A stretch of 39,670 nucleotides of DNA from a virus. The number at the start of each line of letters is the position of its first letter. Position 1 is the first letter of the stretch. Shown here piece by piece: positions 6,683 through 35,841 of the stretch. The stretch lies in UHGV virus genome UHGV-0120812. One strand, written 5' to 3'. The notes beneath the pieces were generated by a model. It made no database searches. It saw only the letters and a list, made by a program, of their open reading frames with translations, and was not told the DNA's origin. A program made the translations under genes and the position numbers.

Positions 6683-7306
6683 CTATGCGGCCTCGGAAGG
6701 AAGTCCAATCATCTTATTCAAATCTTCTACCCGTAAAGCAGGAAGTGCTGTACTTGCTTTATCTGCTTCTTTTGGTAGCAACTCTTTGCTTTCAGGCCAA
6801 ACCTCAATAAGTCGCTTAACTGTTGTGACTGAGTTTAAAGCAGCCCATACATTTGATTCGATATCCTTTTTCTTTGCTTCAAGTTTTTGTTGTAATGAGC
6901 AGATTTCATCAAACCTTTTTGTTATTTCGTGCTCTGCGTCAAACATGCATTTATCTTTTGTCGGAGTAGGGAGCAATATATCTTCGCCGTTGCCGTCTTT
7001 CCCATATGAATGCCAGCCAACCCTTCTTCCAGATACAGTCAGATAAATCGAAGTAGAACGAACATCGCATGAGTAAAATGAACATCCCATCTTCTCAAGT
7101 TCTTCACTTATAGCTGCTAACTTGGATGATAACCGATCCACTTCCTCAGTTTTCTTTTTACCGCCAAACGCAATAACTCTGGCGTCAAGTGCAAGCTGGT
7201 TCTTTAACTTTGTTACTTCTTCAAGCTCAGTGAAAACCCCAGACTTAATTAAAGCGTTACGAGCGATTTCCTCTTTCATTCTCGTAGTTAAGCGGATTGA
7301 TGACAT
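6683..7306 (-). CDS. Hypothetical protein (207 aa)
   Basis: Start chosen at MSSIRLTTRMKEEI... (GAGG RBS about 8 nt upstream) rather than the ORF-track start at 7321; coiled-coil-rich; AT-rich. Confidence 0.55.
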   Translation of the reverse strand: MSSIRLTTRMKEEIARNALIKSGVFTELEEVTKLKNQLALDARVIAFGGKKKTEEVDRLSSKLAAISEELEKMGCSFYSCDVRSTSIYLTVSGRRVGWHSYGKDGNGEDILLPTPTKDKCMFDAEHEITKRFDEICSLQQKLEAKKKDIESNVWAALNSVTTVKRLIEVWPESKELLPKEADKASTALPALRVEDLNKMIGLPSEAA

Positions 7307-7342
7307 ATTAATTCCTCTCAAATAAGAAAATAAAGGCCACCA

Positions 7343-7602: not shown

Positions 7603-7929
7603 TCAAATAAGTGGTTTGCTGCCTAATTTCATTTTCTGGCGACCAACACAAGTCACACCCATTTCACTACGTGGCTTGCTGTACCATGTGCGCTGATTCT
7701 TGCGCTCAATACGTTGCAGGTTGCTTTCAATCTGTTCGTGGTATTCAGCCAGCACCGTAAGGTCTATCGGATTCAGTGCGCTTTCTACTCGTGATTTCGG
7801 TTTGCGATTCAGCGAGAGAATAGGGCGGTTAACTGGTTTTGCGCTTACCCCAACCAACAGGGGATTTGCTGCTTTCCATTGAGCCTGTTTCTCTGCGCGA
7901 CGTTCGCGGCGGCGTGTTTGTGCATCCAT
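7603..7929 (-). CDS. N: Antitermination protein N
   Basis: MDAQTRRRERRAEKQAQWKAANPLLVGVSAKPVNRPILSLNRKPKSRVESALNPIDLTVLAEYH... matches lambda N (arginine-rich motif), with a divergent C-terminus. Confidence 0.92.
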   Translation of the reverse strand: MDAQTRRRERRAEKQAQWKAANPLLVGVSAKPVNRPILSLNRKPKSRVESALNPIDLTVLAEYHEQIESNLQRIERKNQRTWYSKPRSEMGVTCVGRQKMKLGSKPLI

Positions 7930-8125
7930 CTGGATTCTCCTGTCAGTTAGCTTTGGTGATTGGATGGCCGGCGCTGAACCCCGGCTTACTGGTTAGAGCG
8001 CCCGCACTACCAGTGACGCTGTCTTGAGGCGCAGATTGGTTACTGCTTGCCATGAGCGCTGTTTATACATTGGTCGAGCATCAGCCTGCTCATTCATCCA
8101 ATCCCAAAGCCTTCTGCTTTGAATG

Positions 8126-8158
8126 CTGCCCTTCTTCAGGGCTTAATTTTTAAGAGCC
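8126..8158 (-). promoter_or_regulatory. nutL (boxA plus boxB hairpin)
   Basis: Minus-strand reading gives GCTCTTAAAAATTAA followed by GCCCTGAAGAAGGGC, the lambda nutL boxA/boxB arrangement. Confidence 0.8.
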
Positions 8159-8197
8159 TCACCTTCATGGTGGTCAGTGCGTCCTGCTGATGTGCTT

Positions 8198-8260
8198 AGT
8201 ATCACCGCCAGTGGTATTTATGTCAACACCGCCAGAGATAATTTATCACCGCAGATGGTT
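8198..8260 (-). promoter_or_regulatory. pL promoter with oL1-oL2-oL3 operators
   Basis: 17-mers TATCACCGCCAGTGGTA, CAACACCGCCAGAGATA, TATCACCGCAGATGGTT; minus-strand -35 TTGACA and -10 GATACT. Confidence 0.85.
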
Positions 8261-8418
8261 ATCTGTATGTTTTTTATATAGATTTATTTTTTGCAGGGTT
8301 GTGTGGATTGAAGGTGATCGAGAGATCTGAATTGCGATGTTTAGTGAGTTGTATCTATTAATTTTGAAATAAATACAATTGGTTATGCGTTTTTTGGGGG
8401 GGGGCGTTAGGCAAAGAA

Positions 8419-8443
8419 AACCCGGCGCTGAGGCCGGGTTGTG
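8419..8443. terminator. Bidirectional hairpin terminator downstream of the cI operon
   Basis: AAAACCCGGCGCTGAGGCCGGGTT: GC stem flanked by A-run and T-run; lies 9 nt past the stop at 8453. Confidence 0.7.
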
Positions 8444-8452
8444 AGGAATTAA

Positions 8453-8638
8453 TTACAGAGCAAAGAGATCATGCATTAGGTTGCTGTTCATCTGGTGGTT
8501 GAATTGATACGGCTCCAATTCCTTCTTGATCTCGTTCAGGTGTTGTTCCGCTTTTTTTGCCAGATCGTGACCTTCTTGGATCTGGCTTTCCAACATCTTG
8601 TTGAGAATTTCCATCTCCGGTTGCAGATTCTTCGGCAT
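8453..8638 (-). CDS. Hypothetical small helical protein, overlapping the 3' end of the peptidase-like ORF in another frame
   Basis: 61 aa from internal ATG (AGGA RBS about 8 nt upstream): MPKNLQPEMEILNKMLESQIQEGHDLAKKAEQHLNEIKKELEPYQFNHQMNSNLMHDLFAL; composition more protein-like than the overlapping frame. Confidence 0.4.
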   Translation of the reverse strand: MPKNLQPEMEILNKMLESQIQEGHDLAKKAEQHLNEIKKELEPYQFNHQMNSNLMHDLFAL

Positions 8639-9470
8639 TAGCTTTTTCCTCTTTTTGTAGATACGTTGTACAATCAATAACCCTCGGCTTTCCAAATGTT
8701 GGAATGTCACCATTATGAATTTTGTCACAGAAAAGATTATAGAGTATTTCTGTTATACCTTTAGGATGCTCAACACACTTGAAAAGTTCCTTGGCTTCTT
8801 TTCTGTCGATAACAAATCCATGTGAAGGATATGAGGCTATTAGTTTGCCTAACGCCCCTTCTTTTAGGCTGCTTGGTTTGTCTGCTAATCGTTGGCCATA
8901 AGTGATAGCTATACTCATTGCGCGCTGATGTTCACCAAGCTTTATTGGATCTATCTGTGCGGCCATAGGTGCTATCAACGCTTCTGTAAGTCTGGTCGCG
9001 ATATCAGCAGACATTTTGGTACTTATCTGATTTTCGTATCTTATCTTAACAAGGTGTGAGTTAAACGCTGAAATAGAGCGTTCCTTTAGAGCATCAAGAG
9101 CTGTCATGATAGCTAAACCAGAACTCATCTCACCTATTTCATCGTTTTTTTTCAGTTGGATATCTAATGGCCCAAGCTCCCCCATGTCACCAATAACAAG
9201 TTTATTGGCTGCTATAGCTATTAGTGTACCAGCACTTTTGCATGGTCCAACAACTAAAAGTGTTACCGTTTCATAATGGTGCTGTAGAGCTCTACCTATA
9301 CGATAACCTGCATTTGGATCACCGCCATAAGTAGCAACACAGAAGATAACATTCTCTTTTAATCCATGTTGTGACTTACGTTTCTTGATTTCATTGGTGA
9401 GATCAAGATAACCATCACGATGAATATCGCCTGTATACACATAAACATCATGATTTTCAATAGAATTCAT
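8469..9470 (-). CDS. Clp-fold (ClpP/SppA/SDH-like) serine peptidase-like protein in the rexAB position; 3' end uncertain
   Basis: 333 aa ORF co-oriented with cI, 115 nt downstream of it; motifs VIFCVATYGGDPNAGYRIGRAL and VVGPCKSAGTLIAIAANKLVIGDMGELGPLD resemble the Clp-protease fold; last ~55 residues are low-complexity. Confidence 0.65.
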   Translation of the reverse strand: MNSIENHDVYVYTGDIHRDGYLDLTNEIKKRKSQHGLKENVIFCVATYGGDPNAGYRIGRALQHHYETVTLLVVGPCKSAGTLIAIAANKLVIGDMGELGPLDIQLKKNDEIGEMSSGLAIMTALDALKERSISAFNSHLVKIRYENQISTKMSADIATRLTEALIAPMAAQIDPIKLGEHQRAMSIAITYGQRLADKPSSLKEGALGKLIASYPSHGFVIDRKEAKELFKCVEHPKGITEILYNLFCDKIHNGDIPTFGKPRVIDCTTYLQKEEKANAEESATGDGNSQQDVGKPDPRRSRSGKKSGTTPERDQEGIGAVSIQPPDEQQPNA

Positions 9471-9585
9471 TCGTTAAACTCCCTGCTGTGGTTACGATGA
9501 ATGTATTCATGTTGAAGCTAAGCCATAGCGGCTTGTCATCATCACCAATCTGGCGGAATTGACTGTTCATAAATCACAATTGGAA

Positions 9586-10302
<717 letters not shown>

Positions 10303-10309
10303 TTAAATC

Positions 10310-10380
10310 TATCACCGCAAGGGATAAATATCTAACACCGTGCGTGTTGACTATTTTACCTCTAGCGGTGATAATAGTTG
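10310..10380. promoter_or_regulatory. oR3-oR2-oR1 operators with divergent pRM and pR
   Basis: TATCACCGCAAGGGATA (oR3), TAACACCGTGCGTGTTG (oR2), TACCTCTAGCGGTGATA (oR1); -35 TTGACT and -10 GATAAT of pR. Confidence 0.85.
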
Positions 10381-12257: not shown

Positions 12258-13630
12258 GACAGGATATCGAAGCTAGCGTTATCGGTGGCCTGCTGATTGG
12301 TGGATTAACTCCAACCGCCAGTGACGTTCTGGCAACGCTGGAGCCGGAAGCGTTTTCAATTCCGCTCTACCGGAAAGCCTTCGAGGTTATTCGCAAGCAG
12401 GCGAGAAACAGAAACCTAATCGATGCGCTGATGGTTGCCGAGGCGTGCGGAGAGGAGCATTTCACGTCAATCCTGATGACCAGCAAAAACTGCCCGAGTG
12501 CCGCAAACCTGAAGGGATATGCCGGAATGGTCGCGGATAACTATCACCGCCGTCTGGTGCTGGAAATCATGGATGAAATGCGTGAACCAATTCAGAGCGG
12601 AACCATCGACGCATCGAGTCAGGCGATGGACGAGCTTGTAAAGCGTCTTTCAGCCATCAGAAAGCCCCGTGACGAGGTTAAACCTGTACGGTTAGGGGAA
12701 ATCATTACTGACTACACTGACACGCTTGACAGGCGTCTGAGGAACGGAGAAGAGTCCGATACCCTGAAGACCGGAATCGAAGAACTTGATGCCATCACCG
12801 GAGGGATGAACGCAGAAGACCTGGTGATTATCGCCGCTCGTCCTGGTATGGGGAAAACCGAACTGGCTCTGAAGATTGCCGAAGGCGTGGCAAGCCGCGT
12901 TATTCCTGGTTCTGACGTCCGGCGCGGGGTATTGATTTTCTCGATGGAAATGAGCGCATTGCAGATTGCAGAGCGAAGCATTGCCAACGCCGGGAGGATG
13001 TCGGTTAGCGTACTGCGAAATCCTGCATCGATGGATGACGAAGGCTGGGCGCGTGTTGCTAACGGCATGAGTCAGCTTGCAGATTTGGATGTATGGGTAG
13101 TCGATGCCTCGCGGTTATCGGTCGAAGAAATACGCTCAATCGCAGAACGGCACAAACAGGAAAATCCAAACCTGTCACTCATCATGGCGGATTATCTTGG
13201 CCTGATTGAGAAGCCGAAAGCAGATCGCAACGACCTCGCAATTGCTCACATCTCAGGAAGCCTGAAGGCGATGGCGAAAGACCTGAAAACACCGGTTATC
13301 TCCCTGAGTCAGCTTTCACGCGATGTTGAGAAGCGACCAAACAAACGCCCGACAAACGCAGATTTGCGTGATTCAGGAAGCATTGAACAGGACGCAGACT
13401 CAATCATCATGCTCTATCGGGAAGCGGTATATGACGAGAACAGTAGCGCCGCGCCATTTGCTGAAATCATCGTGACGAAAAACCGTTTTGGCTCGCTTGG
13501 TACGGTTTACCAGCGGTTCTGCAACGGACACTTTGTTGCATGTGACCAGGATGAAGCCAGACAGATTTGCACAACATCAAATGCACCCGCTGCACGTGGC
13601 AGACGATATGCACAAGGGGCTGACGTATGA
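12254..13630 (+). CDS. DnaB-family replicative helicase (P22 gene 12-like)
   Basis: 458 aa; Walker [18 protein letters not shown] and DnaB-like C-terminal domain; start overlaps the initiator stop. Confidence 0.88.
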
Positions 13631-13655
13631 CCATCTACATCACTGAGCTAATAAC

Positions 13656-13687
13656 AGGCCTGCTGGTAATCGCAGGCCTTTTTATTT
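13656..13687 (+). terminator. Rho-independent terminator downstream of the helicase gene (tR2-like position)
   Basis: AGGCCTGCTGGTAATCGCAGGCCT hairpin followed by TTTTATTT. Confidence 0.65.
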
Positions 13688-13702
13688 GGGGGATGGTAAA
13701 TC

Positions 13703-13909
13703 GTGGTTGAGTTGATTTTTTCTGCATTGAGGATTCTCGGTGCTATGTGGATGGTGGCGACGTTCATTGTGGTTGCCAGCAGTTTTGTCCGGCTGGTAGG
13801 CGAAGGTAAAGACCTGGTTGGTGTGCTTTTCGGTAGCATTTTCCTGTGGGTGATTATCGGTGTTGCGCCTGTCGCTGTAGCAAAAATGGCGTGGCGTTTT
13901 GTGAGTTGA
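13703..13909 (+). CDS. Hypothetical small membrane protein (two predicted TM helices)
   Basis: 68 aa GTG-start ORF, highly hydrophobic (MWMVATFIVVASSF...; FLWVIIGVAPVAVA). Confidence 0.4.
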   Translation: MVELIFSALRILGAMWMVATFIVVASSFVRLVGEGKDLVGVLFGSIFLWVIIGVAPVAVAKMAWRFVS

Positions 13910-13916
13910 GGTGACA

Positions 13917-14363
13917 ATGAAGCAAATATACATGCTTCGCAACGAAGCAATCAGAAACAACGCCATAGACGCAATACTCTCACTTCCGATCGACGACAAG
14001 TCACCTCACGAAGTCCACATTAAAGAACCAAAGCGGAGCAATCCTCAAAACCGCCTTATGTGGGCGTTATTGCAGGACGTATCACGTCAGGTGCTTTGGC
14101 ATGGACAGAGACTTGCGCCGGAGGACTGGAAAGACCTGTTCACTGCCCTGTGGCTTAAGACCAAAAAACTGGAGCAACGAAGTGTGCCTGGTATCGATGG
14201 TGGCGTTGTCATGCTTGGCGTGCGTACCAGCAAAATGCGAAAGGCCAGCATGACTGAGCTTATCGAAATCATGTTTTGGTTCGGCTCAGAGCGCAACGTG
14301 CGGTGGAGTGATGACTCCCGGCGAGAGTATGAATGGTCACAACGAAAAGGTAGGGCTGCATGA
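13917..14363 (+). CDS. ninB: NinB (Orf-family recombination mediator)
   Basis: 148 aa; NPQNRLMWALLQDVSRQVLWHGQRL and C-terminal WSDDSRREYEW align with lambda NinB; GAGGTG RBS 5 nt upstream of ATG. Confidence 0.82.
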   Translation: MKQIYMLRNEAIRNNAIDAILSLPIDDKSPHEVHIKEPKRSNPQNRLMWALLQDVSRQVLWHGQRLAPEDWKDLFTALWLKTKKLEQRSVPGIDGGVVMLGVRTSKMRKASMTELIEIMFWFGSERNVRWSDDSRREYEWSQRKGRAA

Positions 14364-14887
14364 CTATCAAATCAAATACGCCAGCACACGACAAGGACTG
14401 CTGGCAAACGCCGCTTTGGCTTTTTGATGCACTGGATATTGAGTTTGGATTCTGGCTGGATTCGGCAGCGAGCGACAAAAATGCTCTGTGTGCTCACTGG
14501 CTAACTGAGGCCGACGACGCGCTCAATTCTGAGTGGGTAAGCCACGGTGCAATCTGGAATAACCCACCGTACAGCAATATCAGGCCGTGGGTGGAAAAAG
14601 CCGCTGAGCAGTGCATACAACAGCGACAGACGGTAGTTATGCTTGTGCCAGAGGATATGTCAGTCGGATGGTTCAGCAAGGCTCTGGAGAGCGTTGACGA
14701 AGTTCGCATCATCACTGATGGACGGATTAATTTTATCGAACCATCGACGGGGCTGGAGAAGAAGGGAAACAGCAAAGGTTCCATGCTGCTGATTTGGCGA
14801 CCGTTCATCAGTCCTCGACGGATGTTTACTACCGTATCCAAATCGGCATTGATGGCGATCGGACAGGGCGCCAGGAGGGCGGCATGA
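14360..14887 (+). CDS. DNA N6-adenine methyltransferase (phage Dam-type, orphan)
   Basis: 175 aa with NPPYS motif (motif IV of N6-adenine MTases); no adjacent restriction endonuclease gene. Confidence 0.78.
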
Positions 14888-15066
14888 GACGACAGCGACG
14901 AAGTATCACCGACATAATCTGCGAAAACTGCAAATACCTTCCAACGAAACGCTCCAGAAATAAACGCAAGCCAATCCCAAAAGAATCTGACGTAAAAACC
15001 TTCAACTACACGGCTCACCTGTGGGATATCCGGTGGCTTAGAGAACGTGCGAGGAAAACAAGGTGA
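14884..15066 (+). CDS. ninE: NinE
   Basis: 60 aa [60 protein letters not shown], near-identical to lambda NinE as recalled. Confidence 0.85.
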
Positions 15067-15233
15067 TTGACCCAAATCGAAGTTACGAACAAGAAAGCGT
15101 CGAGCGGGCTTTAACGTGCGCTAACTGCGGTCAGAAGCTGCATATGCTGGAAGTTCACGTGTGCTCCGATTGCTGCGCAGAGCTGATGAGCGATCCGAAT
15201 AGCTCAATGTACGAGGAAGAAGACGATGAATGA
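15063..15233 (+). CDS. ninF: NinF
   Basis: 56 aa GTG-start hand translation [56 protein letters not shown], resembling lambda NinF; below the ORF-track cutoff. Confidence 0.7.
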
Positions 15234-15951
15234 GTTAATAAATGGCAACGCCATCAAAATGACAAGCATTGAAATCGCTGAGTTGGTAGAAAGCCGCCAT
15301 AGCAATGTAAAAGTATCCATAGATAGATTGGTGAAACGTGGCGTTATCAAGCCTCCTGCATTGCAGCACACTAACATAATCAATGATTTAGGTGTTATTA
15401 CCGGGAAGCGTTATTTCTACGTCTTCGAGGGCGAACAAGGAAAGCGAGACAGCATTATTGTCGTCGCCCAATTGTCGCCAGAGTTCACCGCTCGCCTTGT
15501 TGACCGTTGGCGAGAGCTTGAAGAAGCTGCGGTTAATATCCCAAAAACGCTACCGGAAGCGTTGCGCCTTGCTGCTGATCTTGCTGAGCAGAAAATGCAG
15601 CTGGAAAACCAGCTCGCAATTACCGCACCTAAAGTTGAGTTTGCCGATCGCGTTGGCGAGGCCAGCGGAATTTTGATTGGAAACTTTGCAAAGGTTGTTG
15701 GAATTGGTCCAAACAAACTGTTTGCGTGGATGCGAGATCACAAAATCCTTATTGCTTCAGGTTCCCGGCGAAATGTGCCAATGCAGGAATATATGGATCG
15801 CGGCTATTTCACAGTGAAAGAAACAGCGGTCAACACAAATCACGGAATACAGATATCGTTCACCACAAAAATCACCGGGCGTGGTCAACAGTGGCTGACC
15901 AGAAAGCTGCTCGATAACGGAATGCTGAAAGTAACAGGTGAGGCTGCTTAA
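15226..15951 (+). CDS. Rha-family regulatory protein with KilA-C/ANT antirepressor-like C-terminal domain
   Basis: 241 aa; N-terminal region typical of phage Rha proteins, C-terminal region resembling the antirepressor KilAC domain (from memory). Confidence 0.65.
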   Translation: MNELINGNAIKMTSIEIAELVESRHSNVKVSIDRLVKRGVIKPPALQHTNIINDLGVITGKRYFYVFEGEQGKRDSIIVVAQLSPEFTARLVDRWRELEEAAVNIPKTLPEALRLAADLAEQKMQLENQLAITAPKVEFADRVGEASGILIGNFAKVVGIGPNKLFAWMRDHKILIASGSRRNVPMQEYMDRGYFTVKETAVNTNHGIQISFTTKITGRGQQWLTRKLLDNGMLKVTGEAA

Positions 15952-16241
15952 TGGCTAATCTACGCAAAGAAGCACGCGGCAGAGAATGCCAGGTACGTAT
16001 TTACGGCGTATGCAATGGCAACCCTGAAACTACAGTTCTGGCACATTATCGGATGGCTGGAATTTGCGGAACGGGAATGAAGCCTGACGACCTGATCGGC
16101 GCATGGGCTTGTAGCGCGTGTCACGATGAAATCGACCGACGCACCCATAATCTCGACAACAAAGACGCCAGACTTTACCACCTCGAAGGCGTGATCAGGA
16201 CGCAGGCGATACTGCTGAAGGAGGGGAAGATTAAGTCATGA
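15951..16241 (+). CDS. ybcO: YbcO-like DUF1364 zinc-binding protein
   Basis: 96 aa MANLRKEARGRECQVRIYGVCNGNPETTVLAH...CSACHDEIDRRTH; closely resembles E. coli DLP12 YbcO as recalled. Confidence 0.72.
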   Translation: MANLRKEARGRECQVRIYGVCNGNPETTVLAHYRMAGICGTGMKPDDLIGAWACSACHDEIDRRTHNLDNKDARLYHLEGVIRTQAILLKEGKIKS

Positions 16242-16600
16242 ACGAATATCAGTTTGTGCTTCCATACCCGCCGTCGGTGAACACCTACTGGCGAAGACGG
16301 GGAAGCCAATACTACATCAGCGATAAAGGCCAGAAATACCGAAAAGACGTTCAGCAAATCATCCGCCAACTCAAGTTAGACATTTTCACCAAATCACGAC
16401 TCCGCATCAAAGTCATCGCAGACGTTCCAGACTCCCGCCGCCGCGACCTCGACAACATCCTGAAAGGTTTACTCGATTCCCTTATCCACGCCGGATTTGC
16501 GGAAGACGACGAGCAATTCGATGACATTCGCGTAATTCGTGGTGTGAAAGTACCAGGCGGACGGCTTGGAATAAAAATCACCGAACTGGAGAACGCATGA
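16238..16600 (+). CDS. rusA: RusA Holliday junction resolvase
   Basis: 120 aa; LPYPPSVNTYWRRRG and DSRRRDLDNILKGLLDSL match RusA motifs, including the catalytic aspartates region. Confidence 0.88.
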   Translation: MNEYQFVLPYPPSVNTYWRRRGSQYYISDKGQKYRKDVQQIIRQLKLDIFTKSRLRIKVIADVPDSRRRDLDNILKGLLDSLIHAGFAEDDEQFDDIRVIRGVKVPGGRLGIKITELENA

Positions 16601-16785
16601 ACGCCACAATTCAAACGATACCAGAGCTTCTTATCCAGACACGAGGCAATCAGACCGAAGTGGCAAGGATGCTTTCCTGCGCAAGAGGAACAGTGCTCAA
16701 GTACAACCGAGACAGCAAAGGCGAGCGTCACGCAATAGTTAACGGCGTCCTGATGGTCAAACAGGGCAAGAGGGGAAGACGATGA
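16597..16785 (+). CDS. ninH: NinH
   Basis: 62 aa; YGNQTEVARMLSCARGTVLKY...HAIVNGVLMV resembles lambda NinH. Confidence 0.78.
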   Translation: MNATIQTIPELLIQTRGNQTEVARMLSCARGTVLKYNRDSKGERHAIVNGVLMVKQGKRGRR

Positions 16786-17405
16786 GACTCGAAAGCGTAG
16801 CTAAATTTCATTCGCCAAAAAGCCCAATGATGAGCGACTCACCACGGGCTACGGCTTCTGACTCTCTTTCCGGTACTGATGTGATGGCTGCTATGGGGAT
16901 GGCGCAATCACAAGCCGGATTCGGTATGGCTGCATTCTGCGGTAAGCACGAACTCAGCCAGAACGACAAACAAAAGGCTATCAACTATCTGATGCAATTT
17001 GCACACAAGGTATCGGGGAAATACCGTGGTGTGGCAAAGCTTGAAGGAAATACTAAGGCAAAGGTACTGCAAGTGCTCGCAACATTCGCTTATGCGGATT
17101 ATTGCCGTAGTGCCGCGACGCCGGGCGCAAGATGCAGAGATTGCCACGGTACAGGTCGTGCGGTTGATATAGCAAAAACAGAGCAGTGGGGGAGAGTTGT
17201 TGAGAAAGAGTGCGGAAGATGCAAAGGCGTCGGCTATTCCAGGATGCCAGCAAGCGCCGCATATCGCGCTGTAACGATGCTAATCCCAAACCTTACCCAA
17301 CCCACCTGGTCACGCACTGTTAAGCCGCTGTATGACGCTCTGGTGGTGCAATGCCACAAGGAAGAGTCAATCGCAGACAACATTTTGAATGCGGTCACAC
17401 GTTAG
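16782..17405 (+). CDS. Q: Late-gene antiterminator Q
   Basis: 207 aa MRLESVAKFHSPKSPMMSDSPRATASDSLSGTDVMAAMGMAQSQ..., near-identical to lambda Q as recalled. Confidence 0.95.
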   Translation: MRLESVAKFHSPKSPMMSDSPRATASDSLSGTDVMAAMGMAQSQAGFGMAAFCGKHELSQNDKQKAINYLMQFAHKVSGKYRGVAKLEGNTKAKVLQVLATFAYADYCRSAATPGARCRDCHGTGRAVDIAKTEQWGRVVEKECGRCKGVGYSRMPASAAYRAVTMLIPNLTQPTWSRTVKPLYDALVVQCHKEESIADNILNAVTR

Positions 17406-17446
17406 CAGCATGATTTCCACGGATGGCAACATATTAACGGCATGAT

Positions 17447-17476
17447 ATTGACTTTTTGAATAAACTTGGGTAAATT
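17447..17476 (+). promoter_or_regulatory. Late promoter pR' (with overlapping qut region)
   Basis: -35 TTGACT, 17-bp spacer, -10 TAAATT; same arrangement as lambda pR' downstream of Q. Confidence 0.75.
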
Positions 17477-17482
17477 TGACCC

Positions 17483-17677
17483 AACGATGGGTTAATTCGC
17501 TCGTTGTGGTAGTGAGATGAAAAGAGGCGGCGCTTACTACCGATTCCGCCTAGTTGGTCACTTCGACGTATCGTCTGGAACTCCAACCATCGCAGGCTGA
17601 GAGGTCTGTAAAATGCAATCCCGAAACAGTTCGCAGGCAATAGTTAGAGCCTGCATAACGGTTTCGGGATTTTTTAT
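17483..17677 (+). ncRNA. 6S late leader RNA ending at tR' (approximate ends)
   Basis: Sequence from pR' to hairpin AATCCCGAAAC...GTTTCGGGATTTTTTAT matches the lambda pR'-tR' segment as recalled; ends not determined. Confidence 0.5.
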
Positions 17678-18073
17678 ATCTGTGTAACAGGTAAGAGCAT
17701 TCTCCCTTATGGAGCTTGTCTTAAATGCACCGAGTGCTCTTTCCGTTGTGCTGAATTAAGCGAATGCCGGAAGCAGAACCGGATCACCAAATGCGTACAG
17801 GCGTCATCGCCGCCCAGCAACAGCACAACCCAAACTGAGCCGTAGCCACTGGCTATCCTGAATTCATCAGTGATAGTTACGCTGCGGCCTTCTACACATG
17901 ACCTTCGTGAAAGCGGGTGGCAAGAGGCTGCGCTAACAACCTCATGCCGCTTTGCCCGTGCATATCGGTCACGAACAAATCTGATTACTAAACACAGTAG
18001 CCTGGATTTGTTCTATCAGTAATCGACCTTATTCCTAATTAAATAGAGCAAATCCCCTTATTGGGGGTAAGAC

Positions 18074-18397
18074 ATGAAGATGCCAGAAAAACATGACCTG
18101 TTAGCCGCCATTCTCGCGGCAAAGGAACAAGGCATCGGGGCAATCCTTGCGTTTGCAATGGCGTACCTTCGCGGCAGATATAATGGCGGTGCGTTTACAA
18201 AAACAGTAATCGACGCAACGATGTGCGCCATTATCGCCTGGTTCATTCGTGACCTTCTCGACTTCGCCGGACTAAGTAGCAATCTCGCTTATATAACGAG
18301 CGTGTTCATCGGCTACATCGGTACTGACTCGATTGGTTCGCTTATCAAACGCTTCGCTGCTAAAAAAGCCGGAGTAGAAGATGGTGGAAATCAATAA
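18074..18397 (+). CDS. S: Holin S (dual-start S107/S105 motif)
   Basis: 107 aa [41 protein letters not shown]..., matching lambda S. Confidence 0.95.
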
Positions 18398-18857
18398 TCA
18401 ACGTAAGGCGTTCCTCGATATGCTGGCGTGGTCAGAGGGAACTGATAACGGACGACAGAAAACCAGAAATCATGGTTATGACGTCATTGTAGGAGGAGAG
18501 CTATTCACTGATTACTCCGATCACCCTCGCAAACTTGTCACGCTAAACCCAAAACTCAAATCAACAGCCGCCGGGCGTTACCAGCTTCTTTCCCGTTGGT
18601 GGGATGCCTATTGTAAGCAGCTTGGCCTGAAAGACTTCTCTCCGAAAAGCCAGGACGCTGTGGCACTGCAACAGATTAAAGAACGTGGCGCTTTACCGAT
18701 GATTGATCGCGGTGATATTCGTCAGGCAATTGACCGTTGCAGCAATATCTGGGCTTCACTTCCGGGCGCTGGTTATGGTCAGTTCGAGCATAAGGCTGAT
18801 AGCCTGATTGCAAAATTCAAAGAAGCGGGCGGAACGGTCAGAGAGATTGAGGTATGA
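18381..18857 (+). CDS. R: Endolysin R (lytic transglycosylase)
   Basis: 158 aa [42 protein letters not shown]..., matching lambda R. Confidence 0.95.
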
Positions 18858-35508: not shown

Positions 35509-35760
35509 TCAGGTGGGTTTTTTGTACAAATCCTTCAGCGTATCAAACACCATCTTCTTAACAAGCTCTGACTGCTCATCAGCGATGCGTTCCGCATCGT
35601 CTCGATAGCCTGAAATTTTGGATGGCTTTGATACAGCATCAGTCACTATCTGAACTAATTCTGAATTAAGAGAGCGGCCATTGGATTTGGCTCGCTGTTT
35701 TAGTTTTTCCTTTAATTCGTAAGGTAGCCGCAGATTAAATTGCGGGTCATCTCTTCCCAT
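35509..35760 (-). CDS. mnt: Mnt repressor (ribbon-helix-helix, Arc/MetJ family)
   Basis: 83 aa; DDPQFNLRLPYELKEKLKQRAKSNGRSLNSEL...YRDDAERIADEQSELVKKMVFDTLKDLYKK resembles P22 Mnt. Confidence 0.85.
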   Translation of the reverse strand: MGRDDPQFNLRLPYELKEKLKQRAKSNGRSLNSELVQIVTDAVSKPSKISGYRDDAERIADEQSELVKKMVFDTLKDLYKKPT

Positions 35761-35820: not shown

Positions 35821-35841
35821 ATAAGACCACGGTGGTCGTAT
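35821..35841. promoter_or_regulatory. Mnt-operator-like palindrome
   Basis: ATAAGACCACGGTGGTCGTAT, a near-perfect 21-bp palindrome with the CACGGTG centre, between mnt and the tailspike gene. Confidence 0.65.

Follow-up and report, generated by a model that had tools for sequence, protein, structure and literature searches.

What are the two additional genes that lie among the nin genes of the virus genome UHGV-0120812, and is one of them an antirepressor that was moved there from immI? The window, by which we mean the whole DNA sequence that was analysed (39,670 nucleotides), belongs to a P22-like (Lederbergvirus) E. coli phage with HK97-type CI and Cro and lambda-type operators. A preliminary description had noted a Dam-type methyltransferase gene and a gene for a protein with pRha and KilAC domains between ninB and the ybcO-like gene, had assigned anti-restriction to the former, and had regarded the latter as an antirepressor relocated from immI that might be connected to an orphan mnt. 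Our analysis indicated that both of these "cargo" genes are already known, one as a GATC methyltransferase of the M.EcoVT2Dam type and the other as roi of phage HK022, and that the region that holds them is ordinary. The stretch is very probably the nin region of a lambdoid phage in its standard HK97 form, with two already described accessory genes at their usual place.

Table 1. Coordinates of the features discussed in the text, as positions of the window
Feature	Position	Strand	Evidence or description
N gene	7603-7929	-	
tR2-like intrinsic terminator	13656-13679	+	8-bp stem, 6 G-C pairs, then TTTTATTT
ninB (Orf-family recombination mediator)	13911-14363	+	PF05772, E 8e-49; phrog_72
dam, orphan N6-adenine DNA methyltransferase, 175 aa	14360-14887	+	PF05869 'Dam', E 6e-65
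ninE	14884-15066	+	PF05322, E 3e-43
ninF	15063-15233	+	PF05810, E 3e-13; phrog_672, E 2e-35
roi, 241 aa	15226-15951	+	ANT/KilAC PF03374, E 1.5e-32, residues 127-229
IHF core consensus AATCAATGATTTA inside roi, codons 51-55	15378-15390	+	
ybcO-like (NinX-type) putative nuclease	15951-16241	+	PF07102, E 2e-44
rusA, ninH and Q, the end of the overlapping gene chain	16238-17405	+	RusA PF05866, NinH PF06322, Q antiterminator PF03589
mnt	35509-35760	-	Arc and Repressor_Mnt domains

The gene content given earlier for the interval from ninB to the ybcO-like gene was borne out, as every gene was recovered at its coordinates with strong family matches, and profile matches supported the domain labels of dam, ninE, ninF and the pRha and KilAC protein. 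The genes follow the order P ... ninB-dam-ninE-ninF-roi-ybcO-rusA-ninH-Q, which places roi between P and Q, and the annotation of HK97 gives an identical order (gp61(NinB)-gp62-gp63-gp64-Roi-gp66-gp67-gp68-Q). The ninE protein is 100% identical to that of HK022 and 98% identical to HK97 gp63, the ninF protein is 96% identical to HK97 gp64, and the RusA, NinH and Q proteins are 97.5-99% identical to their counterparts in HK97 and HK022. The ybcO-like protein shows 97-98% identity in HK97 and in HK022, and it is also present in Kapi1 (Kapi1_033). The NinB allele is only 46-48% identical to the NinB proteins of HK97 and HK022, and the DNA match to Stx phages such as phi367 and AU5Stx1 begins within ninB, at query position 18, and stands at 92.6-93.3% over the aligned region. 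DNA matching the stretch was found in 2192 of the 5426 complete E. coli genomes and in 428 phage records, and in 561 complete E. coli genomes at least 80% of the stretch was present in one place. A search of Rfam (13000-18500) and a tRNA scan found nothing.

The architecture of the region suggests how these genes would be expressed. All eight junctions from ninB to Q overlap, by 1-8 nt; dam overlaps each of its neighbours, ninB and ninE, by 4 nt, and the overlap of roi with ninF is 8 nt. No credible promoter was found in the stretch, which contains only two weak promoter-like sites compared with 4.4 expected by chance, and no LexA box was found between 12733 and 18917, with fewer matches overall than by chance. 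A terminator lies just 3' of the P (DnaB-like) gene and 5' of the nin genes, and its lambda-like position suggests that it functions as tR2. Because this tR2-like terminator stands ahead of the nin genes, their expression would need N antitermination. The genes dam and roi would belong to one translationally coupled chain that runs from ninB to Q downstream of this terminator, and they would be expressed in the delayed-early phase, from pR and with the help of N, and be silent in the lysogen. Judging from the architecture, control of dam and roi by CI would be only indirect. In addition, since roi overlaps ninF and has no promoter of its own, Roi would be made only once CI is already off.

The assignment of dam was supported by both profile and pairwise comparisons. 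The protein scored 218.5 bits against PF05869 (cutoff 28.1), covering profile positions 1-167 of 169, and 265.2 bits against TIGR01712, 'phage N-6-adenine-methyltransferase' (equivalog cutoff 97.05), and its NPPYS motif (residues 68-72, with NPPY at 68-71) is intact. It is identical to the Dam of VT2-Sakai (BAA94133) at 173 of 175 positions (98.9%), with differences at residues 162 and 171 alone, outside the NPPY motif, and its identity to HK97 gp62 is also 173/175. M.EcoVT2Dam is an orphan methyltransferase known to target GATC (PMC6602927, citing Radlinska and Bujnicki 2001), and the 98.9% identity to this cloned enzyme leads us to predict that the Dam described here targets the adenine of GATC (G-m6A-TC). 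The cloned Bibersteinia enzyme M.Btr190III, a relative of M.EcoT1Dam at 35% identity, methylates GATC but is also active off target (PMC4996451); therefore, GATC specificity within the T1/HP1 Dam family is not absolute. That the methyltransferase is an orphan, as had been claimed, was supported by the surroundings of the gene, which is flanked by ninB and ninE and by no restriction endonuclease gene, and by the PADLOC search, in which the best matches were 'orphan methyltransferase' (oMTase) models. The ybcO-like putative nuclease, 1 kb downstream, was ruled out as the cognate nuclease of Dam because HK022 and Kapi1, which lack dam, carry its gene as well. We noted that dam makes up a single-gene cassette between the boundary repeats GGGCTGCATGA and GGGCGGCATGA, and that HK022, which has no dam, carries the same GGGCGGCATGA at its ninB/ninE junction. 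An antisense open reading frame of 193 aa (14494-15075, minus strand), which matched phrog_37455 with an E value of 2e-117, was rejected as a gene. The differences from VT2 and HK97 fall mostly at third positions of the dam frame, with 2-3 changes in the sense protein and 9 in the antisense one, and the VT2 copy of the antisense frame carries a stop.

During lytic growth, Dam would methylate the adenine in GATC on the phage DNA. The benefit may be that fast-replicating phage DNA is kept fully methylated and is thereby protected against nicking of the MutH type and against restriction systems that cleave GATC, and the anti-restriction role proposed earlier is a plausible candidate. E. coli hosts already possess a Dam of their own, and, because the usual host already methylates GATC, protection against restriction would matter in special hosts only. 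A possible alternative, of which we are doubtful, is that the phage enzyme serves mainly the DNA transactions of the phage itself and not anti-restriction. The enzyme might, for instance, keep MutH from cutting freshly replicated DNA at GATC sites that are unmethylated or hemimethylated, or set the timing of gene expression or of packaging. Among the 4-bp palindromes of the window, GATC ranks second in avoidance (94 observed, compared with 206 expected under a Markov model and 163 +/- 10 in shuffles), which fits this alternative, as does the work of Deschavanne and Radman, who in 1991 reportedly attributed the counter-selection of GATC in enterobacterial phages to methyl-directed mismatch repair. 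The GATC methylation already provided by the usual host and the GATC-free regions noted in prophages (PMC6602927) point in the same direction. However, a comparison of four phages gave no correlation between GATC content and the presence of dam, the avoidance of GATC being no weaker with dam (observed/expected 0.46 and 0.62) than without it (0.60 and 0.38). Many relatives, such as HK022 and Kapi1, manage without dam, and in one type of Stx phage IS629 is inserted in a gene for a putative adenine methyltransferase (PMC4587872), both of which also argue against a function in the phage's own DNA transactions. The same is true of the lambda-type operators read here, which contain no GATC. An action of Dam on the immunity operators was rejected, as oL and oR are both of this lambda type and without GATC.

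The other accessory gene was identified in the same manner. By sequence comparison, the 241-aa protein with pRha and KilAC domains is the Roi protein of HK022 and HK97, which the preliminary description had not recognised. It is identical to the product of the HK022 open reading frame at the roi position at 239 of 241 residues, with Y65 for D and T134 for A, and to the annotated Roi of HK97 (gp65) at 236 of 241. Nothing that we found spoke against this identity or that of dam. In the literature, Roi is a product of the nin region that binds DNA and is implicated in the lytic growth of HK022, and its position is conserved among Stx phages (PMC4587872, PMC3430580); it is not described there as an antirepressor. 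Its KilAC/ANT domain scored 112.6 bits against PF03374 (cutoff 25.3). Residues 12-100 matched the full profile (1-91/91) of Phage_pRha, PF09669, at 25.1 bits, under the Pfam cutoff of 29.9; the Roi allele of Kapi1 scored 36.7 bits against pRha, and Roi relatives at 46-50% identity carry a precomputed PF09669 call. In the Roi alignment, this allele shows RHSNV at a place where nearly all relatives show RHDNV. An AlphaFold2 model based on an alignment of 105 diverse pRha and KilAC proteins reached a mean pLDDT of 72, and the model from a shallow alignment of close Roi relatives, with a pLDDT of 36.8, was unusable. The former displays a beta-alpha-alpha-beta-beta-alpha-alpha succession at residues 11-102, a helix at 109-146 and a second alpha/beta domain at 151-230, which suggests that a winged helix of the pRha type at the N terminus is followed by a long helix in the centre and a KilAC/ANT domain at the C terminus. 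No solved relative of Dam or Roi turned up in PDB, whether searched by sequence or by profile.

Roi would be a site-specific DNA-binding regulator, as described for HK022 and HK97. Clerget and Boccard reportedly found in 1996 that HK022 Roi binds sequence-specifically within its own gene beside an IHF site and that IHF stabilises this binding, and Roi is said in the same work to block the lytic growth of HK022 when IHF is missing. We found that the pattern WATCAANNNNTTR has a single sequence match in the 39.7-kb window, at 15378-15390, inside roi, and that this predicted IHF site is identical to the HK022 and HK97 copies. When WATCAANNNNTTR was scanned in other genomes, HK97 and HK022 gave the attP region and the roi site only, and Kapi1 gave the roi site only; the recovery of the attP-region sites of HK97 and HK022 served as the positive control. 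The only strict IHF consensus in the window therefore lies inside roi, an arrangement that was reportedly also found in HK022. The site is kept across three roi alleles that are strongly divergent around it (alignment columns 190-206). Because the variable N-terminal segment contains this conserved IHF site, roi alleles might be self-contained specificity cassettes, each with its own matching site for binding, although we consider this quite unlikely. A search for short repeats inside roi gave only weak pairs of 9-15 nt, none of which was convincing as a Roi operator.

The C-terminal domain of Roi allows a second activity to be considered by analogy. Roi might be a dual-function regulator like AriS, with a pRha domain that tunes the phage's own genes via DNA binding and a KilAC domain that damps SOS in the host, probably via RecA, and we regard this as unlikely. 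In the work of Azulay et al. 2022 (PMC9043618) on Listeria phage proteins, SOS-driven lysis was blocked by the KilAC domain of AriS and by whole A118 Gp42 and Lin2418, and pRha plus KilAC is one of the architectures listed there in the AriS group, into which Roi, with its pRha-like and KilAC domains, fits. Moreover, residues 121-230 of Roi are 32% identical to A118 Gp42 (E 1e-16), a protein composed of AntA and KilAC. However, at 32% identity and between phyla, the function of Gp42 cannot be transferred to Roi, and AriS at its native level showed no measurable SOS inhibition (PMC9043618). An activity of this kind is compatible with the DNA-binding account of Roi and not opposed to it. In a combined form, which we consider quite unlikely, Roi would be a two-headed commitment factor, with a MerR-like winged-helix head on an intragenic site by 15378-15390 and a KilAC head damping RecA/SOS in the manner of AriS; if this were true, the phage would tune its own late development together with the induction of co-resident prophages. 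The only domain-level experiment on KilAC that we found points to inhibition of SOS, more or less the reverse of induction.

It is very improbable that Roi is an antirepressor displaced from immI, possibly still controlled by Mnt, that would induce the prophage by inactivating CI once it is expressed. Its C-terminal domain does belong to the Pfam family ANT/KilAC (E 1.5e-32), named after P1 Ant1 and KilA, the databases do label the protein 'anti-repressor', and the orphan state of mnt is real, as neither arc nor ant lies between mnt and the tailspike gene. However, the function of the KilAC domain has been described as unclear (PMC9043618), and the proposed relocation was not supported by the distribution of the gene. 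The same roi occupies the same place in HK97, HK022 and Kapi1; the annotated records of HK97 and HK022 have no mnt-arc-ant region, and Kapi1 has a full mnt-arc-ant in addition to roi. In the window, roi lies in the nin region, 20 kb from the immI position between arc and the tailspike gene. The immI Ant of Kapi1 consists of Bro-N and P22_AR_C, whereas Roi consists of pRha and KilAC, and a global alignment of the two proteins gave 54 identical positions over 320 columns. Furthermore, Roi keeps 99% identity in HK022 despite an unrelated repressor (HK022 DNA gave no tblastn match to the CI of the window), and 88% identity in Kapi1, whose CI is 34% identical; in this comparison, Roi does not co-vary with immunity type. 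The suggested link to mnt was not supported either, as the palindromic candidate Mnt operator at 35824-35838 is the sole copy in the window at up to 3 mismatches, and the overlap of roi with ninF, together with the lack of a promoter of its own, is further evidence against an antirepressor. The layout with mnt next to the tailspike gene recurs in ST160, SE1, Gally and 720R6. The mnt in the window is distant from that of Kapi1 (31 of 84 residues identical), and a match to the sequence that directly follows Kapi1 ant spans the 61 nt immediately ahead of the tailspike gene. A simple deletion of arc and ant relative to Kapi1 was rejected, since the match is confined to these 61 nt.

The database label 'anti-repressor' is therefore corrected: the gene is roi, and its published activity is DNA binding linked to IHF. 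The methyltransferase is likewise annotated as the GATC enzyme already known from HK97 and Stx phages. As a caution, function should not be read from the Pfam name 'ANT'. With its presence in about 40% of complete E. coli genomes, Roi is a reasonable, modest experimental target.

Compared with known systems, the Dam described here agrees with M.EcoVT2Dam and HK97 gp62 in length, in its NPPY motif and in lying between ninB and ninE, and it differs from each by two conservative C-terminal substitutions; those enzymes are carried by an Stx phage and HK97, whereas the carrier here is P22-like. It also matches the family of T1 Dam and HP1 Dam (PF05869, TIGR01712) over the full length of the profiles and above the curated cutoffs; the VT2-Sakai record notes similarity to HP1 Orf13 and T1 M.T1, and T1 Dam and HP1 Dam are distant members of this family. 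The P22-type immI Ant shares with Roi the database label 'antirepressor', but it differs in domains (Bro-N and P22_AR_C in Kapi1), in locus and in its control by Mnt and Arc, and there is no meaningful sequence similarity between them. AriS and A118 Gp42 of Listeria phages have the same C-terminal KilAC domain, the same two-domain plan and an exchangeable N-terminal regulator domain, whereas Gp42 carries an AntA domain at its N terminus and comes from a different host phylum. With Rha of phi80 and P22 (PF09669), the N-terminal domain of Roi aligns over the whole pRha profile, although below the Pfam cutoff. Henthorn and Friedman are said to have found Rha in 1995 as a product that blocks phage growth in IHF-defective hosts, and Roi would resemble it in this respect, to the extent that the title of the 1996 paper describes Roi. 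In HK022 and HK97, roi has the same neighbours as here, ninF upstream and the ybcO-like gene downstream, and its IHF consensus is identical and falls on the same codons.

The ORF list and family matches placed ninB, a Dam-type methyltransferase gene, ninE, ninF, a 241-aa gene and a ybcO-like gene where the preliminary description had put them, and profile searches showed that the matches behind all of the gene calls of this stretch were far beyond chance; rusA, ninH and Q are the next genes in the ORF list. An antisense 193-aa ORF across dam and ninE (14494-15075, minus strand; phrog_37455, E 2e-117) is probably a shadow ORF, judging by its substitution pattern and a stop codon in the copy of phage VT2-Sakai. 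Some phage records list this ORF as a gene.

Genes of the stretch between ninB and the ybcO-like gene, with their family matches
Gene	Position	Strand	Family match
ninB	13911-14363	+	NinB profile, E 8e-49
dam (175-aa ORF)	14360-14887	+	PF05869, E 6e-65; NCBIfam equivalog TIGR01712, 265 bits (cutoff 97)
ninE	14884-15066	+	NinE, E 3e-43; start is an internal ATG
ninF	15063-15233	+	NinF, E 3e-13
roi (241-aa ORF)	15226-15951	+	ANT/KilAC, E 1.5e-32 (residues 127-229)
ybcO-like (96-aa ORF)	15951-16241	+	YbcO, E 2e-44

Both cargo genes are already known and lie at their normal place. Compared with the phage collection at the DNA level, the dam-to-rusA segment is 96.9% identical to phage HK97, whose annotated order is the same as that in the window: gp61 (NinB), gp62, gp63, gp64, Roi (gp65), gp66, gp67, gp68 and Q. 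Dam is identical at 173 of 175 residues to HK97 gp62 and equally to the annotated 'dam' of VT2-Sakai, and the 241-aa protein matches the ORF at the roi position of phage HK022 at 239 of 241 residues and HK97 Roi at 236. The VT2-Sakai enzyme, M.EcoVT2Dam, is regarded in the literature as an orphan enzyme 'known to target GATC', its cloning being cited to Radlinska & Bujnicki 2001 (PMC6602927), and Roi has been called a DNA-binding protein whose context is conserved in Stx phages (PMC4587872, PMC3430580). The two differences between Dam and M.EcoVT2Dam, at residues 162 and 171, are far from NPPY, which is intact (NPPYS, residues 68-72); therefore, the disabling motif substitutions that would have spoken against an active enzyme are not seen. 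Of the Rha plus KilA-C label given to Roi, the KilAC part was upheld, while the Rha part is weaker: the pRha alignment covers the full profile length at 25.1 bits, under the Pfam cutoff of 29.9, which sister Roi alleles pass (36.7 bits for the allele of phage Kapi1).

All eight gene junctions from ninB to Q overlap, with the start of roi lying 8 nt before the end of ninF; the region has fewer promoter-like sites than expected by chance, and a terminator and then a T-run stand just after gene P. Because of these three features, transcription of roi should start at pR and depend on N antitermination, so that it would occur only after CI is inactive. Expression of dam should accompany that of the other delayed-early genes.

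As had been described, dam is an orphan gene in the window, and an anti-restriction role for its product is plausible; protection from MutH, or a part in the phage's own DNA handling, is plausible as well. Avoidance of GATC in the window is strong: there are 94 sites, where shuffled sequences gave 163 +/- 10 and a Markov model predicted 206 (observed/expected 0.46), and only CTAG was rarer (4 sites, observed/expected 0.11). GATC avoidance was similar in phages with dam (0.46 in the window, 0.62 in HK97) and without it (0.60 in HK022, 0.38 in Kapi1), an anecdotal comparison of four genomes. Of the GATC sites in the window, twelve lie in 8001-10000, including six in 8316-8582, around where a 333-aa gene (8469-9470, minus strand) ends, and none was present in the lambda-type operator sequences that we read.

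This 333-aa gene occupies the interval from N to cI, in which lambda rexA/rexB would be expected and HK97 has different genes. Its family match is phrog_21683 (unknown function; E 8e-185), besides a sub-threshold one to a ClpP-like SDH protease, and PADLOC gave no match; the gene is a candidate for lysogen-expressed cargo. Downstream of N, the leftward early operon encodes a 212-aa protein (6683-7321, minus strand) that is a full-length match to Nmad5 ('nucleotide modification associated domain 5', E 8e-71), and the gene is also present in Kapi1.

HK022 Roi reportedly has a helix-turn-helix, a binding site inside roi near an IHF site, and a C-terminal half resembling P1 Ant1 and KilA. A search of the 39.7-kb window for the strict IHF core consensus WATCAANNNNTTR gave one match, within roi (15378-15390), which is not statistically notable alone (2.2 expected by chance). 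It is rendered informative by the three control phages: the pattern recovers the roi site in each of them, accompanied by three sites around the annotated att core in HK97, by two upstream of int in HK022 and by no other site in Kapi1. The motif is kept in three roi alleles despite strong divergence of the ~130 nt around it. The gene is itself mosaic; alleles diverge strongly in the part for residues 24-66 (15295-15425; alignment columns 101-235), which are predicted to form the recognition helix and wing, and the KilAC-coding 3' half hardly varies in nucleotides, VT2-Sakai included. An AlphaFold2 model from 105 diverse sequences (29-93% identical to Roi) was usable, with a mean pLDDT of 72, and predicts a beta-alpha-alpha-beta-beta-alpha-alpha arrangement in residues 11-102, a 38-residue helix (109-146) and a second small alpha/beta domain (151-230).

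That KilAC/ANT domains act as antirepressors had been taken as established knowledge. It is not, since Azulay et al. (2022, PMC9043618) describe their function as 'still unclear' and found that the overexpressed KilAC domain of Listeria AriS, whole A118 Gp42 and whole Lin2418 suppress the SOS response, probably via RecA. An AriS-like role for Roi is a live rival reading, if an unlikely one in our judgment, the points in its favor being the alignment of residues 121-230 with A118 Gp42 (32% identity, E 1e-16) and the listing of pRha + KilAC among the AriS-group architectures (PMC9043618).

The proposal that the 241-aa protein is an antirepressor relocated from immI, the mnt-arc-ant region, and tied to an orphan mnt is not supported, being opposed by co-occurrence, domains, operators, expression and immunity type. 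Its premise was correct: Mnt (35509-35760, minus strand; 83 aa, Arc and Repressor_Mnt domains) is present, and neither arc nor ant was found between mnt and the tailspike gene of the window. However, the close relative Kapi1 carries both a nin-region roi (Kapi1_032, 211 of 241 residues identical) and a complete mnt-arc-ant region, while HK97 and HK022 have roi and lack mnt, arc and ant in their annotated records. Kapi1 Ant consists of Bro-N + P22_AR_C, unrelated to pRha + KilAC. The perfect palindrome AGACCACGGTGGTCG (35824-35838), which we take to be the Mnt operator from its likeness to the P22 operator, lies in the interval that separates mnt from the tailspike gene, 70 nt before the start codon of the latter; it is unique in the window with up to 3 mismatches allowed, leaving no copy near roi, and a window search found no LexA box near roi. 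Moreover, roi is predicted to be read only once CI is already inactive, and an inducer made after induction makes little sense. Finally, Roi identity is 99% in HK022, a phage whose DNA shows no match to the window CI, and 88% in Kapi1, where the identity of CI is 34%. The mnt-beside-tailspike layout is recurrent and known from annotation (Salmonella phages ST160 and SE1; E. coli phages Gally and 720R6), and read-through into the tailspike gene is one possibility for the Mnt target in the window.

Of 5426 complete E. coli genomes, 2192 gave DNA matches to the 1.6-kb stretch, and 561 hold at least 80% of it in one place; the wider segment 13900-16300 matched 428 phage records, and Roi matched ~7700 protein clusters. 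Taken as a whole, the window combines known modules in a new mosaic. Its CI and Cro share 99% and 98.5% identity with the HK97 proteins, and the operators at 8190-8260 and 10310-10375, with sites such as TATCACCGCAAGGGATA and TAACACCGTGCGTGTTG, are read by us as lambda-type oL and oR, yet the virion genes are P22-like, with Kapi1 and CUS-3 as best relatives; the phage is therefore a hybrid in which a podovirus structural module is joined to HK97-type CI/Cro and lambda-type operators. The ninB allele is of the Stx-phage type. The dam cassette comprises exactly one gene, bounded by GGGCTGCATGA and GGGCGGCATGA, whereas in HK022, which is without dam, ninB directly joins ninE and the junction carries the same GGGCGGCATGA. 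This one-gene cassette is the usual lambdoid exchange at gene boundaries.
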